Assembly (NCBI GenBank): GCA_951406725.2
Contig: OX597818.1
Location: 54,932,001 to 54,996,000, forward strand
DNA length: 64,000 nt
Source of the DNA: Octopus vulgaris
Lineage: Eukaryota
Reading direction: 5' to 3'
Positions 746-63,649 of the stretch are shown one piece after another (the stretch's first letter is position 1; each line of letters begins with the position of its first letter). The translations under genes were made by a program, and so were the position numbers. A model generated the notes under the pieces. The model searched no databases and had not been told where the DNA came from. It was given only the letters and a program-made list of their open reading frames with translations.

Positions 746-944
746 CGAAAAAGGAAACTAACTACAGCAAGCTATAAAGACGGACATGTTGAGATGGGCT
801 TGATCGAGAGAATATTCCAGGAACCTGAGAATACAAGCAGCAACTCGTTTAAACCACGATCGACTTGACGTTGTTGTTTGGAACAACAAAAGACGGAAAG
901 TTCGCTTTACTTGGAATTCTCTTGATAATAACGTAAAGTATACT

Positions 945-1150
945 AGCCATCAGTATGGCTAATCACTTAGGGTGGGTGTTACTGTAGCTTTTAGCCCCAG
1001 GAGATCATCGTCTCCAGCTGGCTTTAGGCACACTATCTGTGCCCTTATGGTATTTGCGAAGGGAGGTCATCCCTTTCTCGTAAGCCTAAGTGATACGCAC
1101 GGACTGCAGTTTCGAGGTGTTTGCCTCTTGTCAACGCACGGTAATCACCG
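945..1150 (-). mobile_element. Family R hammerhead-bearing non-coding element, diverged copy
   Basis: Colinear similarity to 56330-56530. Hammerhead at 1096-1140: CGUGCG-UUGACAA-GAGG-CAAACA-CCUC-GAAAC-UGCA-GUC-CGUGCG. Confidence 0.8.
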
Positions 1151-1444
1151 GTTTACGATGAAAAGGAAGACCTGTTTGCAAATACTTATGGGTTTTTCTA
1201 GTAACTTCCGTCACTGGTTTCGAAAAACTGTCTGCAAGCCATAATAAATCTCTGAACGAGATGTTTCTGGATCATCGATGCCTGAAAGTCAAGTATTTAA
1301 AATATACATTCAGCTTTATGACCGTCATTTTGGGAGCGGTAGGATACGTACCAACCCGCCTGCTCTCAAAATATGGCCGATCCTGAAAAGATGGAGAGAT
1401 AACGTAGATCCGTAATTCTCACGCTTATAGAAATTAGAAGTGAC

Positions 1445-5372: not shown

Positions 5373-6010
5373 AAGGCGGAGAGTTGACAGAATCGTTAGG
5401 ACGCCGAGAAAAATACTTAGCGGCATTTCGTCTGTCTTTACGTTTTGAGTTCAAATACCTATTTCTTTACTACCCACAAGGGTCTACACACAGAGGGGAC
5501 AAACAAGGACAGGCATACGGATTAAGTCGACTATATCGACCCCAGTATGTAACTGGTCCTTAATTTATCGACCCCGAAAGGATGAAAGGCAAAGTCGACC
5601 TCGGCGGAATTTGAACTCAGAACGTAGAGATAGACGAAATACCTATTTCTTTATTACTCACAAGGGGCTAAACATAGAGGGGACAAACAAGGACAGGCAT
5701 ACGGATTAAGTCGATTATATCGACCCTAGTACGTAACCGGTTCTTATTTAATCGACCCCGAAAGGATGAAAGGCAAAGTCGACCTCGGCGGAATTTGAAC
5801 TCAGAACGTAGAGATAGACGAAATACCGCTAAGCATTTCGCCCGGCGGTATTTCGCCTGTCTCTACGTTCTGAGTTCAAATACCGCCGAGATCGACTTTG
5901 ACTTTCATCCTGTTGGGGTCGATAAATTAAGTACCAACTGAGCACTGGGATCGATGTAATCGACTCACGCCCTCCCCGAAACTGCTGGGGCTATGTCAAA
6001 ATTTGAAACA
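5373..6010. mobile_element. SINE family C composite: a minus-strand tandem dimer (5460-5846) inserted in a plus-strand copy
   Basis: The plus-strand head breaks at TTCAAATACC (5459) and resumes at ~5847 with ~38 bp duplicated. Two 184-bp reverse units lie between. Confidence 0.85.
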
Positions 6011-8537: not shown

Positions 8538-9019
8538 CAGCTGAATAAAATTACTGCTGTTGTTTATCAACAACAACTTCCGGCGGTATATATGTCATTT
8601 GTCACTGTTATTTATGACATATTTCATCTCAGTTTCGTTCGTATGAATAATCGAGTGTATCTGAGGCATGTTTATTTTATGGCACCACCATACCATAATC
8701 GTTCGTGCTTCATTTTTCTTTTTTTTTTTCCGTAACTCTAACCTTAAAACCCCAACCCTAACCCTAAAACCTTAACCCTAACCCTAAACCTAACTCTAAA
8801 ACCCTAACCCTAAAACCAAGCCCTAATCCTAGAAACCTGTCCCTAAAACACTAACATTATCCATAACCCTAAACCCTTAAACCTAACACCCTAACCCTAA
8901 ACCCTTAAAGCTAAAACCAGTACAAACGCACGAACGATGTCAGAAATAACAGCGACAAACAAAAAATACACCGTCGATAGTTGTTGTTGACAAACAACAG
9001 CAGTAATTTTATTCAGCTG
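8538..9019. mobile_element. Foldback/MITE-like element with ~90-bp inverted arms enclosing a degenerate (CCCTAA)n array (8733-8917)
   Basis: CAGCTGAATAAAATTACTGCTGTTGTTTATCAACAACAAC matches the reverse complement of GTTGTTGTTGACAAACAACAGCAGTAATTTTATTCAGCTG. Inner inverted pair ATCGTTCGTGC / GCACGAACGAT. Confidence 0.7.
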
Positions 9020-14396: not shown

Positions 14397-15148
14397 ATTC
14401 ATGATTCGACTTCTCGGATTCACGATTTGATTTCTTGGATTCACGATTCGACTTCTTGGATTCACGATTCGATTTCTTGGATTCATGATTCGACTTCTTG
14501 GATTCACGATTCGACTTCTTGGATTCACGATTCGACTTCTTGGATTCACGATTCGACTTCTTGGATTCACGATTTGATTTCTTGGATTCGCGATTCGACT
14601 TCTTGGATTCACGATTCGATTTCTTGGATTCACGATTCGACTTCTTGGATTCACGATTCGATTTCTTGGATTCACGATTCGACTTCTTGGATTCAAGATT
14701 CGACTTCTTGGATTCACGATTCGACTTCTTGGATTCACGATTCGACTTCTTGGATTCACGATTCGACTTCTTGGATTCACGATTCGACTTCTTGGATTCA
14801 CGATTCGACTTCTCGGATTCACGATTTAATTTCTTGGATTCACGATTCGACTTCTTGGATTCGCGATTCGACTTCTTGGATTCACGATTCGACTTCTTGG
14901 ATTCACGATTCGACTTCTTGGATTCACGATTCGATTTCTTGGATTCACGATTCGATTTCTTGGATTCACGATTCGACTTCTCGGATTCACGATTCGACTT
15001 CTTGGATTCACGATTCGACTTCTTGGATTCATGATTCGATTTCTTGGATTCACGATTCGACTTCTCGGATTCACGATTCGACTTCTTGGATTCCCGATTC
15101 GACTTCTTGGATTCATGATTCGATTTCTTGGATTCACGATTCAACTTC
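14397..15148. repeat. 21-bp tandem array (ATTCACGATTCGACTTCTTGG), about 36 copies
   Basis: Read directly: substitution variants but no indels. Produces the (RESKKSN)n, (IHDSTSW)n, (SRFDFLD)n and (VNPRSRI)n ORFs. Confidence 0.97.
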
Positions 15149-17256: not shown

Positions 17257-18515
17257 GGGGTTGGACAAAATAATGGAAAAACCTTAAAATTTCAAACAAG
17301 TATATTTTAATATAGGGTAGGACCGACTTTGGCAGTAACTACAGCTTGAATTCTACGAGGTATGGACTCGTACAAAATTTGAATTGTTTCCAAAGGAATT
17401 TTTGTCCATTTTCCAGCTAAAACAGTCTACAGTTCTTGTAGTGATGATGGTGGAGGATATCGACGCCTTACTTATTTTTCTAAAATGCACCATAAATGTT
17501 CAATAATATTGAGATCTGGGGACTGTGGTGGCCAGATAAAATGTTCAACTTTATTAGAATGTTCCTCGTACCATTCAGTAACAACTTTAGCTTTGTGAAT
17601 TGGTGCATTATCATCCTGAAAGATTGTGTTTCCCTCCGGAAACAGTTCCGCAACGATAGGATGAATTTTATCAGATATGTTGCTTAAATAATCTTGACTA
17701 TTAATTCTGCCATGAAGGGAAACTATTAGGCCGGCGGATTTCCAAGATATAAAGCCCCAGATCATCACAGATCCTCCTCTATGTTTAACAGTTGGAAGAA
17801 GGCAGCCTAGATCAAATGCTTCTTTTGCTTGTCTTCATGCGTATGCTCGGCCGGTTGTCGGAAATAAGGTAAAGGAAGACGCATCCGAGAAAATAACATT
17901 CTTCCACTGCTCAAGGGACCAATTCTGTAGGTGTTTACTCCACTCTAATAGCTTGCAACGTTTGTTTTTGAAAATAGTGGTTTTATGATTGCAGCTCTCC
18001 TGTAAAATCCGGCTTTGTGCAGCTCCCAGTGAACAGTTTTTGTGGAAATTGGGTTCTCGAGGTGGTCACTAAGCTCCGCTGTAAGTTTGGGAGCTGTACT
18101 TTTGTGATCCTTTCTAACAATTCGCGTAAGAGTCCGACGGTCCCTATCTGAAAGTTTTGGTTTTCTTCTGGAGTTTTGTTTCAATGAGGTGTTTTTACCT
18201 CTTTCTCAAAGGCTGTCTTTACTTTTGAGACAGTACTTTTTGATACATCAAACATTTCGGCTGTTTTTGTTACGCTAGCGCCAGCCATTCGAGCACCAAC
18301 AATTTGACCTCTTTGAAAGTCCGATAGATCTGTCATTTTAGTGAGTTTTAATTACCTTTTTCTGGTGACATCTGAAGAGAAACAACAATTTTAGCAAAAC
18401 ATATTAAGCAACGCTAATAATAAATCAAAAACATAAAAATATACAAGCTTTTGACGGTTTTATTGATATTTCAAAATTATGGTGCTATGATGCTAGGTGT
18501 CTCCATTATTTGGTC
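17255..18515 (-). mobile_element. Tc1-family DNA transposon, decayed
   Basis: TIR CAGGGGTTGGACAAAATAATGGAAA.ACC at 17255; truncated inverted copy GGTGTCTCCATTATTTGGTC at 18496-18515. Confidence 0.9.
17307..18336 (-). pseudogene. Tc1-type DDE transposase pseudogene (frameshifts and a deletion)
   Basis: MTDLSDFQRGQIVGARMAGASVTKTAEMFDVSKSTVSKV (HTH), KLSDRDRRTLTRIVRKDHK, MIWGFIS, FQDDNAPIH, WPPQSPDLNIIEHLW and YESIPRRIQAVVTAKVGPTLY*, spread over several frames. Confidence 0.92.
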
Positions 18516-33129: not shown

Positions 33130-33728
33130 TTATTCTTTATTGCCACAAGGGGCTAAACATAGAGGGAACAAACAAGGACCGACAAAGGAATTGAGTCGAT
33201 TACATCGACCCCAGTGCGTAAATAGTACTTATTTAATCGACTCCGAAAGGATGAAAGGCAAAGTCGACCTCGGCGGAATTCGAACCCAGAACGTAAAGAA
33301 GACGAAATATATATTTCTTTACTACCCACAAGGGGCTAAACACAGAGAGGACAAACAAGGACAGACAAACGGATTAAGTCGATTATATCGACCCCAGTGC
33401 GTAACTGGTACATAATTTATCGACCCCGAAAGGATGAAAGGCAAAGTCGACCTCGGCGGAATTTGAACTCAGAACGTAGCGGCAGATGAAATACCTATTT
33501 TTTTACTACCCACAAGGAGCTAAACACAGAACGGACGAATAAGGACAGACAAACGGATTAAGTCGATTACAATGACCCCAGTGCGTAACTGGTACTTATT
33601 TAATCGACCCCGGAAGGATGAAAGGCAAAGTCGACCTCGGCGGAATTTGAACTCAGAACGTAGCGGCAGACGAAATACCGCTAAGCATTTCGCCCGGCGT
33701 GATAACGATTCTGCCAGCTCGCTGCCTT
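33130..33728 (-). mobile_element. SINE C tandem trimer
   Basis: Three ~184-bp units; only the rightmost carries the 5' head. Confidence 0.9.
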
Positions 33729-38172: not shown

Positions 38173-38930
38173 GTTTCAAATTTTGGCACAAGGCCAGCAA
38201 TTTCGGTGGGGTGGGTAAGTCGATGTCATCAATCCAAGTGCTCAGCTGCTACTTATTTTATCAACCCAGAAAGGACGAAAGACAAAGTTGACCTCGGCGG
38301 AATTTGAACTCAGAACGTAACGGCAGACGAAATACCTATTTCTTTACTACCCACAAGGGGCTACACACAGAGAGGACAAACAAGGACAGACAAATGGATT
38401 AAGTCGATTATATCGACCCCAGTGCGTAACTGGTACTTAATTTATCGACCCCGAAAGGATGAAAGGCAAAGTCGACCGACGGAATTTGAACTCAAAACGT
38501 AACGGCAGACGAAATACCTATTTCTTTACTACCCACAAGGAGCTAAACACAGAGAGGGCAAACAAGGACAGACAAACGGATTAAGTCGATTACATCGACC
38601 CCAGTGCGTAACTGGTACTTATTTAATCGACCCCGAAAGGATGAAAGGCAAAGTCGACCTTGGCGGAATTTGAACTCAGAACGTAACGGCAGATGAAATA
38701 CCTATTTCTTTACTACTCACAAGGGCTAAACACAGAGAGGACAAACAAGGACAGACAAACGGATTAAGTCGATTACATCGACCCCAGTGCGTAACTGGCA
38801 CTTATTTAATCGACCCCGAAACGATGAAAGGCAAAGTCGACTTCGGAGGAATTTGAACTCAGAACGTAGCGGCAGACGAAATACTGATAAGTATTTTGCT
38901 CGGCGTGCTAACGGTTCTGCCAGCTCGCCG
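38173..38930 (-). mobile_element. SINE C tandem tetramer
   Basis: Junctions GAAATACC|TATTTCTTTACTAC at about 38337, 38519 and 38703. The terminal unit has a different tail. Confidence 0.92.
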
Positions 38931-53628: not shown

Positions 53629-54029
53629 AATATATTCATACATACAACGAGCTTCTTTCAGTTTCCGTCTACCCAATCCATCCACTGACAAGGCTTTGGT
53701 CGGCCTGGGACTAAATAGAAAACACTAGTCCAAGTTGCCACGCAGTGAGAATGAACTTCGAACCATGCAGCTGGTGGGGGGGGGGTGCAAAAGCATCTTA
53801 GTACACTACTACCCCTGTGCGCGCGCGCGCGTATGTGTGTGCGTGTGTGTCAGTGTTTGTGTATACAAAGAGATGGGAGAGAAAGCGTGAAAAAGATGGG
53901 GAAAGGGGAGGTGGATATAGAACAGGATGCACATTTGAGCATGCACGTGAGGTGCACGTAAGTTTCACAATCTATAACTTCGAGTTTTTCGCTGACAATC
54001 TGAAGTTAATTAATAAACACTTTATCAAC

Positions 54030-54630
54030 AGAAGTGGCTGTGTGGTAAGTAGCTTGCTTACGAACCACATGGTTCCGGGTTCATTCCCACTGCGTGACAC
54101 CTTGGGCAGGTGTCTTCTACTATAGCCTCGGGCCGACCAAAGCCTTGTGAGTAGATTTGGTAGACAGAAACTGAAAGAAGCTCGTCGTATATATGTGTAT
54201 ATATATATATTACTCTTTTACTCTCTCTCTTTTACTCTTTTACTTGTTTCAGTCATTTGACTGCGGCCATGCTGGAGCACCGCCTTTAGTCGAGCAAATC
54301 GACCCCGGGACTTATTCTTTGTAAGTCCAGTACTTATTCTATCGGTCTCTTTTGCCGAACTGCTAAGTGATGGGGACGTAAACACACCAGCATCGGTTGT
54401 CAAGCGATGTTGGGGGACAGACACATAAACACAGACACACACACACATACATACATATACATATATACGACAGGCTTCTTTCAGTTTCCGTCTATCAAAT
54501 CCACTCACAAGGCATTGGTCGGCCCGGGGCTATAGCAGAAGACACTTGCCCAAGATGCCACGCAGTGGGACTGAACCCGGAACCATGTGGTTGGTTAGCA
54601 AGCTACTTACCACACAGCCACTCCTGCGCC

Positions 54631-54717
<87 letters not shown>

Positions 54718-54945
54718 GTGTTTGTGTGTCTGTGTTTGTCCCTCCCCCCAACATCGCTTGACAACCGATGCTGGTGCGTTTACGTCCCCGTAACTTATAG
54801 CGATTCGGCAAAAAACACCGATAGAATAAGTACTAGGCTTACAAAGAATAAATCCTGGGGGTTTATTTGCTCGACTAAAGGCGGTGCTCCAGCATGGCCG
54901 CAGTTAAATGACTGAAACAAGTAAAAGAGTAAAAGAGTAAATGAG
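54030..54945. mobile_element. Plus-strand SINE A with a full minus-strand SINE A (54212-54630) nested in its microsatellite
   Basis: Plus head 54030-54190, complete reverse copy, plus tail 54715-54945. Confidence 0.88.
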
Positions 54946-55975: not shown

Positions 55976-56053
<78 letters not shown>

Positions 56054-56197
56054 CAGCATATTGGCAAATAAAATCTTTACTTTTTGCCCTTATTTATAAT
56101 TGTATTTAAAATTTCACCCTAAAAGGTATTTTTCATATGCTGACCATTGATAAATGTTTTAATAAAATTTAATCTTTATATTAGAATTATATGTGCG

Positions 56198-56273
<76 letters not shown>

Positions 56274-56481
56274 GATAAATATCAAAGTGAGTTATATACA
56301 GTAGCGGTAACACATCGTGACGTATTTTTGCCATTTCAATATGGCTAACCCCTAAGGGTGGATGCTACTGTAGTTTTTAGCCCCAGGAGGACACACTCCT
56401 CCAGCTGGCCATAGACACACTTTCTGTGTCCTGTCAGTATTTGCAAAGGGAAGTCATCCTTCCCGTCTTCAACTTATGATA

Positions 56482-56526
56482 CACACGGACTCGAGTTTCG
56501 AGGTATTGACCTCTCTTCAGCGTGTG
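56482..56526 (-). ncRNA. Intact type I hammerhead ribozyme (family R)
   Basis: CACACG-CUGAAGA-GAGGU-CAAU-ACCUC-GAAAC-UCGA-GUC-CGUGUG. Stem I extends (UAUGAU/AUCAUA) beyond an internal loop. Confidence 0.9.
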
Positions 56527-56556
56527 ACAATCATAGTTGTCGGCGAGAACATAGTT

Positions 56557-56984
56557 GTCCTCCTGGGGCTAAAAACTACAGTAGCATCCACCCTTAGGGG
56601 TTAGCCATATTGAAATGGCAAAAATACGTCACGATGTGTTACCGCTACTGTATATAACTCACTTTGATATTTATCATTGTTTGATTTCACTTTTTCAATA
56701 TCAGCGACAGTGGACGCTGGAAAAAGTATAAGTATTTGTGAAGGAAATCTAATTCTCGGCGACAACTATGATTGTCACACGCTGACGAGAGGTCAATACC
56801 TCGAAACTCGAGTCCGTGTGTATGATAAGTTGAAGACGGGAAGGATGACTTCCCTTTGCAAATACTGACAGGACACAGAAAGTGTGTCTATGGCCAGCTG
56901 GAGGAGTGTGTCCTCCTGGGGCTAAAAACTACAGTAGCATCCACCCTTAGGGGTTAGCCATATTGAAATGGCAAAAATACGTCA

Positions 56985-56988
<4 letters not shown>
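56557..56988 (+). mobile_element. Family R element, about 1.2 tandem units, period 353 nt
   Basis: GTCCTCCTGGGGCTAAAAACTACAG...GTCACGAT occurs at 56557 and again at 56910. Confidence 0.85.
56776..56820 (+). ncRNA. Intact type I hammerhead ribozyme (family R)
   Basis: CACACG-CUGACGA-GAGGU-CAAU-ACCUC-GAAAC-UCGA-GUC-CGUGUG; predicted cut between 56814 and 56815. Confidence 0.9.
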
Positions 56989-57046
<58 letters not shown>

Positions 57047-57057
<11 letters not shown>

Positions 57058-57673
57058 CGCACATATAATTCTAATATAAAGATTAAATTTTATTCAAACA
57101 TTTATCAATGGTCAGCATATGAAAAATACCTTTTGGGGTGAAATTTTAAATACAATTATAAATAAGGGCAAAAAGTAAAGATTTTCTTTGCCAATATGCT
57201 GAACAATAGACGTTAAATCGTCTAACCACATAAAATATTTTCACTTGTATTATTACACCACGTGACGAAACGAGTAAAGCGGCTAACAGAGATTCATAAA
57301 AATATAGTTATTCCTGAATCGGTTCCGATTTCTGGATTAATCCAAAAAGGATTTTTCCTGCGTCAGCGGGGGACACAAAAAGAAAATAAATAAATGAAAT
57401 CCTTAAACATACCCACGGAAAAGCACATTTAAGTACCCTAAATATATCTAAATCGAAATTCCGTAGCAAACTTCGGCACAAGTGTAGTCGGTCGGGAAAC
57501 GCACACAAGTGGTTAACCCGTCCAGAAGTGATTGAGAATTTACTTCTAATATAAGGATAAAATTTTATTAAAATAATAATATAAGTGAAAATAGTTTATG
57601 TAGTGAGACGATTTGGCGTGTATTTTTCAGCATATTGGCAAAGAATCTTTTTCTTTTTGCCTTTATTTATAAT
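57047..57673 (-). mobile_element. Family G element: partial direct repeat (57069 / 57545, period ~476) plus an inverted terminal segment, PLE-like layout
   Basis: TTCTAATATAA.GAT.AAATTTTATT occurs twice; 57574-57673 is an imperfect reverse complement of 57156-57254. Confidence 0.6.
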
Positions 57674-62934: not shown

Positions 62935-63289
62935 TTTATATATATACGATATTAGCAATCATTATTAATAATTGTTATAAGGCAGTGAACTAGCAGATTC
63001 GTTAGCACACCGGGCGAAATGCTTAACGGCATTTCGTCTGTCTGCACGAGTTCAAATTCCGCCGGGGCTGTCTTCGTCTTCCATCCTTTCGGAGCCGTTA
63101 AATTAAGTGCCAGTGAAACACTTGGGTCGCTGTAAAGGACTAGTTTCTTCCCCACAAAATTTCAGGCCTTGTTTCTATGGTAGAAAGGATTATTTTTCAT
63201 TGCTATACAACACATACATACACATGCAACAACACACGCACACGTATTTATGTGTATGGGTTTGTATGTCTATATATATCTATACATGT

Positions 63290-63649
63290 CTTCGTCATCG
63301 CCTGAAACTCCGGCCCCTCTCTTCGGTGCTTTTACAACGGTGCTTAAGGTGGTTCGGTCATGCGGCCCGGCGTCCAGAGGGTGAGCTGATTCGCGATGTC
63401 CTCCTCCCACCTCCACTTCCCAGCTGGCGCAAACGTACGGCCGGGCAGCTGAAGACCTGGACAACGACGATAAAGGAGGACCTCTTCGAACTATCAAGTT
63501 CTCAGATGGAACCGCGAATGGCTCGCTATCTCCAGTGACCTCGCACGAGACCGTCGAGCGTGGGCCGCCATGGTTCGTGATGCAGTTAGGACCAGAGAAG
63601 AAGCCAGCTCAACCCGCCCTGGGTGAACGCCGTCACAAGTCCAAGTAGG
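63290..63649 (+). mobile_element. 5'-truncated RTE-clade LINE with an 11-bp TSD
   Basis: LRWFGHAARRPEGELIRDVL...GQLKTW...DLARDRRAWAAMVRD; tail CAAGTCCAAGTA; TSD TCTATACATGT at 63279-63289 and 63650-63660. Confidence 0.9.

Follow-up and report, generated by a model that had tools for sequence, protein, structure and literature searches.

The insertion at 56271-56988 of the sequence analysed here, a 64,000-nt window of Octopus vulgaris DNA, is in our judgement likely to be a copy, young and truncated, from a retrozyme family with a 353-nt unit that is non-autonomous and probably mobilised by Penelope-like elements; it lies in a (TA)n run. It is built of two head-to-head arms, each carrying one type I hammerhead motif, and its features are collected in Table 1. 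Below we describe the locus, follow the unit through public sequencing runs and an older copy, and weigh how the insertion may have arisen.

Table 1. Features of the insertion, its flanks and an older family member (window coordinates)
Feature	Position	Strand	Remarks
Inverted duplicate of right flank	56047..56205	-	98.1% identity over 159 nt
Left (TA)n run	56209..56271		
Inverted 5′-truncated arm	56271..56549	-	unit 56753-56988 plus 43-nt tail (56313-56271), then (TA)n
Second copy of hammerhead	56482..56526	-	RF00163, 31.4 bits, E 1.1e-5
Inversion junction	56550..56559	+	10-nt re-copy of 56532-56541
Plus arm	56556..56988	+	433 nt: full 353-nt period (56556-56908) plus 80 nt
Putative 43-nt tail	56636..56678	+	interval separating the two 3′ termini of the insertion
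Type I hammerhead	56776..56820	+	RF00163 Hammerhead_1, 32.2 bits, E 5.5e-6
Right (TA)n run	56987..57046		
Right flank	57050..57208	+	overlaps older inverted-repeat element
Old decayed family member	932..1298	-	68% identity over the period; tail and seam colinear with the unit

Layout of the insertion and its hammerhead motifs

The 353-nt spacing is exact, as 56556-56635 and 56909-56988 are identical at 80 of 80 positions. The left arm (56314-56549) matches the reverse complement of 56753-56988 at 233 of 236 positions, leaving three differences between the arms, and 56271-56393 matches that of 56556-56678 at 123 of 123. Both arms run across the ribozyme cut site, and neither 3′ end of the insertion (the equivalents of 56635 and 56678, 43 nt apart) coincides with the cut. 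The plus arm meets (TA)n without the 43-nt segment that ends the inverted arm; by analogy with the insertions described in PMC11167929 and PMC8557442, we read this segment as a putative tail. The re-copy at the inversion junction ends in TGTC, the four letters with which the plus arm begins, a microhomology of 4 nt. The centre of the insertion is thus asymmetric, with a 203-nt spacer, a 10-nt templated re-copy and a tail on one side only. The unit has a GC content of 42.5%. A coding role was rejected, given that the longest ATG frame on the circularised unit has 38 codons and that a 66-codon sense frame gave only spurious matches.

Both hammerheads were scored by cmscan of 56200-57050, and each match covers the full model (1-45). 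A scan of the whole window at the gathering score returned nothing because both scores lie just under that score, which is 34. A strict descriptor (core CUGANGA/GAAA/UH, stem I of at least 6 and stem II of at least 4) found a single site on each strand of the window and no site in any of 60 dinucleotide-shuffled windows. Each copy has the conserved core, three stems and open stem I of the type I class, with predicted cuts after GUC between 56814 and 56815 (+) and between 56488 and 56487 (-). The plus hammerhead has a stem I of 6 bp, a stem II of 4 bp closed by the loop UCAAUA, and a 2-bp stem III whose loop, UCGA, is palindromic. Beyond an internal loop lies a distal stem I helix of 6 bp (56767-56772/56822-56827), one pair of which is broken in the plus copy by a private G.G mismatch (56770/56824); position 56824 is C in ~100% of the depth in all four sequencing runs compared below and G in the plus copy of the window. 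The minus hammerhead has A at N7, a free position, and an intact distal stem I. In Vienna folding, the active hammerhead is not the lowest-energy structure, the predicted cost of opening being 3.1-5.4 kcal/mol, and stem III is unformed. Predicted folds of this sort are usual for such motifs, which can act as dimers. The motif shares with RF00163 Hammerhead_1 the core, the stem lengths, a loop II ending in AAUA and the palindromic stem III, and differs from it in stem sequences and in scoring under the gathering score. We take the RF00163 consensus to resemble the Schistosoma SM-alpha ribozyme. Judged by the forms described in PMC4209133, the hammerhead here is the canonical metazoan one and not the minimal PLE (Penelope-like element) one. 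Viroid-like ambisense ribozymes were ruled out, as the unit contains a single motif.

The sequence-only reading of this DNA had proposed complete hammerheads at 56776-56820 (+) and 56482-56526 (-), and cmscan places them at exactly those coordinates; the GUC cut positions that it gave coincide with the predicted ones. The 353-nt head-to-tail period, the inverted copy and the (TA)n at both ends, which it had also claimed, are borne out by the comparisons above. Two of its descriptions stand in part. Hammerheads do occur on both strands, but as one motif in two inverted DNA copies and not as both polarities of one RNA. The unit does repeat, but the term tandem covers just 433 nt, or 1.23 units, with a single hammerhead. 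The "active retrozyme" of Li et al. has two or more consecutive units with complete hammerheads, and the present locus, with 1.23 units and one hammerhead per strand, is a truncated, monomer-type retrozyme copy.

The inversion extends outside the insertion, since 56047-56268 and 56987-57208 match over 222 nt at 99%, a duplication that the sequence-only reading does not mention. The inverted duplicate of the right flank stops at an ATA microhomology in another (TA)n run (55978-56049). The older element that the right flank overlaps is MITE-like, with inverted repeats at 57155-57255 and 57574-57673 (87%, 318-nt spacer); separately, 57538-57573 repeats 57063-57098. One could envision that the duplicate, the (TA)n and the right flank form a MITE with its own terminal repeats. 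We judged this less likely because homology of the right flank continues 47 nt beyond the end of the duplicate.

The surroundings of the insertion are animal DNA rich in repeats and microsatellites. Elsewhere in the window, a 21-nt minisatellite of 35.8 copies (14397-15148) is open in several frames, and a degenerate telomere-like (TAACCC)n array occupies 8733-8918. A SINE-like repeat of 182-184 nt, which presumably resembles octopus tRNA-derived SINEs, forms tandem arrays at 5453-5827, 33143-33679 and 38216-38884 (2.0, 2.9 and 3.7 copies). A SINE-like inverted pair (54029-54208 and 54447-54626; 180 nt, 90%, 238 nt apart) is accompanied by a further inverted pair nearby (54227-54306 with 54858-54937). 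At 17475-18205 (-) lies a broken Tc1/mariner transposase, with DDE_3 and HTH_Tnp_Tc3_2 matches in separate frames; a Tc1 protein search aimed at the host gave generic animal matches, and another protein search gave none. Judged by what octopus repeats are like, the cephalopod host proposed by the sequence-only reading is plausible. The frame at 63107-63538 (+) has no Pfam match; it resembles the C-terminus of a LINE protein of RTE type.

The 353-nt unit in sequencing runs and in an older copy

Twenty of the 24 listed public runs (11 studies, nine organism labels) contain 0.79-0.91 of the monomer's words; none is recorded as RNA. Four of the 20 (X2, X3, X15 and X17, of which X3 and X17 are of DNA type) were compared with 56556-56908, yielding 183, 4419, 6 and 3249 matching contigs, respectively. 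The contig counts in X3 and X17 show a high copy number. Summed depth divided by the typical single-contig depth (~45-60) would suggest thousands of copies, summed depth not being a copy number in itself. All 30 bins of the monomer are covered in each of the four runs, as is the seam between 56678 and 56679, and head-to-tail joints at or near 56908 to 56556 occur in all four. Contig 1 of X15 is 383 nt long (353+30); its first 30 letters equal its last 30, so that it forms a closed cycle, which contains the seam and differs from the window at two positions. Contig 15 of X2 spans both seams with no differences, on short anchors of 23 and 19 letters. The joints and the closed contig are compatible with multimers, with circles or with many 1.2-unit copies. 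Multimers with at least two hammerheads were not seen in the contigs of the four runs, and copies of 1.2 units would likewise produce a closed de Bruijn cycle.

A common 3′ end at ~56632, running into AT-rich DNA, was found in 22 contigs of X3 and 38 of X17. Among the loose ends listed, there was no family-wide 3′ end at 56678 and none that led upstream into an ORF. Contig depth peaks near the 3′ end, as many 5′-truncated copies would give, with the proviso that contig depth cannot rank the parts of the unit.

The ribozyme variants listed for the DNA-type runs (56782-56814, frequency at least 4%) are confined to N7, loop II and stem II, and the catalytic core is, on this comparison, apparently spared by family variation. 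Within stem II, A56790G and U56801C have frequencies of 14 and 15% in one DNA-type run and 10 and 10% in the other, and G56789U and C56802A have 16 and 13%, and 6 and 7%. The changes thus appear to track in frequency as compensatory pairs in these runs. This interpretation does not fit X2, where C56802A reaches 42% and its partner G56789U is not among the variants listed; partner changes on one molecule were not seen in any run. The spared core and the apparently covarying stems suggest selection for cleavage.

Several further observations concern the diversity of the family. Loose ends before 56829-56838 in X2, X3, X15 and X17 reveal one or more diverged sister subfamilies, in which the hammerhead has a 3′ half of its own and stem III a different palindrome; X15 includes a 351-nt contig of this kind. 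Subfamily allele proportions differ between X2 and X3 despite the same organism label. RNA editing is not claimed, as the A>G excess in X2 accompanies U>C partner changes or diverged contigs. Horizontal transfer was likewise set aside: the nine organism labels are coded, and X3 and X17 carry the same variants, so that close kinship or relabelling suffices. A conserved 22-nt motif had no match in metagenome_contigs or in viral_contigs.

The window itself contains an old, decayed member of the family (Table 1). Across tail and seam, it aligns with 49 identities (85 versus 88 nt, p 0.0005; tail alone, p 0.035). Its hammerhead core is broken, with UUGACAA in place of CUGACGA, and its stems are kept, with 17 of 18 hammerhead stem pairs retained. 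Over the unit, it retains 79 of 102 predicted pairs against 63.2±4.3 expected (p 0.0004), a count that comes from two informative sequences and is biased towards retention, since one of the two supplied the structure. At the locus, the palindrome of stem III reads ACUCGAGU; in the old copy, where a double change preserved it, it reads ACUGCAGU, and in a loose-end consensus ACCCGGGU. The fold of the monomer has z = -5.86, and 0 of 100 shuffles were as stable. Taken together, the family-wide period, the colinear old copy and the kept pairs argue that the 353-nt period characterises the family as a whole, is seemingly old and structurally constrained, and did not arise by local truncation of a long element. 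The locus, by comparison, looks young, as the sequence-only reading had claimed: the closed X15 contig is two letters off the window, and the arms have hardly diverged.

Probable mobilisation by a Penelope-like enzyme and its alternatives

Animal non-LTR retrozymes are hammerhead repeats of 150-450 bp, whose circles have been reported from coral, mussel and axolotl and for which PLEs have been proposed as helpers (PMC7229834). PLE insertions are described as partial tandems that include an inverted 5′-truncated copy, carry at one end a tail of 30-40 bp and favour microsatellites (PMC8557442; PMC3846280), and Arkhipova et al. 2013 (PMC3846280) also argues for self-priming. Purified protein of Poseidon, a PLE of Anolis, cuts AT-rich DNA on both strands and extends each of them (Frangieh et al. 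2024, PMC11167929). Its reverse transcription begins at two sites inside the RNA, the stretch between them being the tail, and does not depend on ribozyme cleavage (PMC11167929). The present locus resembles these insertions (Craig et al. 2021, PMC8557442; PMC3846280; PMC11167929) in its microhomology junction and in 3′ ends internal to the RNA. The footprint, a partial tandem with an inverted 5′-truncated copy and both ends in (TA)n, is there as well, in keeping with the PLE-type insertion layout (partial tandem plus inverted 5′ segment) that the sequence-only reading had recognised. Its putative tail measures 43 nt against the 30-40 published (PMC8557442), and an inverted flank duplicate of ~220 nt replaces the short target-site duplication of PLE insertions. 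Unlike PLEs, the unit has no ORF with RT and GIY-YIG, its period is 353 nt and not kilobases, and its hammerhead is canonical and not minimal. None of the 74 filtered frames of the window (at least 75 aa) matches an RT or GIY-YIG Pfam family. We retain the earlier view of the unit as retrozyme-like or dependent on a PLE, and as the carrier of a type I hammerhead of canonical form.

We envision the following course of events. Source loci with at least two units would be transcribed, and each unit would be cut once by its hammerhead, acting singly or as a dimer paired through the palindromic stem III; a host ligase would then close a 353-nt circle. A PLE protein would nick AT-rich DNA and use the unit RNA in trans, reverse transcription starting at internal RNA sites, here at two sites 43 nt apart. 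The arms would then be joined head-to-head through a template jump and the 4-nt microhomology. The template would have been a circle or an uncleaved multimer, because both arms pass the cut site and the plus arm, at 433 nt, is longer than one unit. That the flank duplicate came from the same event, by fold-back copying into the primer-side flank, is an attribution that we find plausible and put just short of probable; a mis-join or an older palindrome would be the alternatives, and the fold-back model additionally requires that the tail was lost or added on one side. More doubtful is the full sequence in which the Penelope enzyme copied a circle of retrozyme RNA for more than one lap from internal starts, folded back on its cDNA and copied ~220 nt of flank. 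Equally doubtful is the part of that sequence by which an inverted target duplication was left instead of a target-site duplication.

One alternative is that the unit is merely the pLTR of an autonomous PLE, the locus being an ordinary 5′-truncated insertion and the 353-nt period accidental. Every feature of the layout is indeed a PLE hallmark (PMC8557442; PMC3846280), 190 Penelope-like families are catalogued for Octopus vulgaris (PMC13282606), some PLE hammerheads have a small palindromic helix III (PMC4209133), and 297 loose ends beyond those listed could lead into an ORF. We nevertheless consider it unlikely. An accidental period does not agree with a seam covered in four of four runs and lying inside the closed 353-nt contig of X15, nor with the same permutation in an old copy of 68% identity. 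The hammerhead has the canonical size and not the minimal PLE form, and the 11 weak hits of the 66-codon sense frame were to unrelated repeat proteins, with no RT or GIY-YIG Pfam domain among them. A different question is whether circles are involved at all, for the family might spread via linear tandem transcripts or as a DNA minisatellite, with the hammerhead as a passenger. PLE reverse transcription in vitro takes uncleaved RNA, hammerhead activity being dispensable (PMC11167929); an uncleaved multimer explains read-through of the cut site in both arms equally well, and a preprint (10.64898/2026.07.22.740005) favours local tandem amplification from PLE ends. However, the spared core and the covarying stems of the family suggest selection for cleavage, and circles were found in three of three animal retrozyme hosts tested, namely coral, mussel and axolotl (PMC7229834), so that spread without a circle seems to us quite improbable.

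The last alternative accepts the family and questions the locus: the palindromic layout, above all the flank duplicate, could be an assembly mis-join at (TA)n. This sequence is self-complementary and borders every segment, inverted structures of PLEs are said to trouble assemblies (PMC8557442), and five of six arm mismatches are transversions. Yet the asymmetric centre, with its spacer, re-copy and one-sided tail, is unlike a fold-back read, and each arm has substitutions of its own, the family allele lying on opposite arms at different sites. A mis-join is, in our view, very improbable, and we retain the reading of a truncated retrozyme copy, probably mobilised by a Penelope-like element.

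Probable fate of the locus and its resemblance to known retrozymes

Whichever strand is transcribed, the predicted fold of a read-through RNA of 56047-57208 has 451 long-range pairs, in which both ribozymes pair with the antisense arm and would take 73-75 kcal/mol to open. The minus ribozyme would be buried at once, as the antisense arm is transcribed first, whereas the plus ribozyme would stay free until the transcript reaches ~56910, in a model that ignores pseudoknots. The earlier proposal that the locus self-cleaves whichever strand is transcribed is doubtful in light of these folds, since the predicted hairpin of ~450 bp buries both ribozymes. Cleavage would require a transcription start between the arms; failing that, the locus more likely gives double-stranded RNA. 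Release of a monomer is impossible here because each strand has one ribozyme (1.23 units). The locus is probably a dead end, because of the single ribozyme per strand and the long hairpin predicted for its read-through RNA.

In size, the 353-nt unit is like the retrozymes of Cervera and de la Peña 2020, for example those of Mytilus galloprovincialis (~350-390 bp) and Rtz_353 of axolotl, a likeness drawn from features. As in the metazoan retrozymes of PMC7229834, it has a GC content under 50%, is non-coding and self-paired, occurs in high copy number and carries a canonical type I hammerhead whose 2-bp stem III has a palindromic loop. Unlike them, the locus holds little more than one unit, with one hammerhead per orientation; its head-to-head inversion, tail and TA target are not described for retrozymes in the available portions of PMC7229834. 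Li, Clavereau and Pollet 2026 (bioRxiv 10.64898/2026.07.22.740005) regard animal retrozymes as non-autonomous PLE derivatives that arose from PLE terminal repeats, and in most of their families solo, monomer-type copies occur, as at the present locus. According to the portions of that preprint available to us, 35 genomes were covered, with no mollusc, the evidence was co-occurrence and pLTR phylogeny and not the anatomy of insertion junctions, and one of nine predicted Xenopus retrozyme dimers was cleaved in vitro.

Whether the family had been described before was raised by the sequence-only reading, which called it possibly undescribed. This holds weakly. Our literature searches turned up no account of a retrozyme family from a cephalopod, and the supplements of PMC7229834 and 10.64898/2026.07.22.740005 could list one. 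But hammerhead and Penelope-like loci of cephalopods are already catalogued: 235 hammerhead-1 loci were counted with Rfam in the giant squid genome (PMC6962438), and Penelope-like families are in the Octopus vulgaris repeat library of a study whose main text and one supplement do not mention ribozymes (PMC13282606).

Retrozymes of animals have been described from corals, mussels, amphibians and many further groups, with PLEs as the proposed agents of their mobility. The present case adds a new family with a clear anatomy to a kind of element that is already known. A young family that keeps the marks of PLE insertion would lend junction-level support to PLE mobilisation and may serve as a substrate for in vitro tests. 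If the proposed mechanism is true and general, then this abundant family would provide a natural test set for the partnership of retrozymes with PLEs and for the self-priming model of PLE inversions. It would also seed the genome with hairpins of ~450 bp, which would be double-stranded RNA substrates for editing or silencing.
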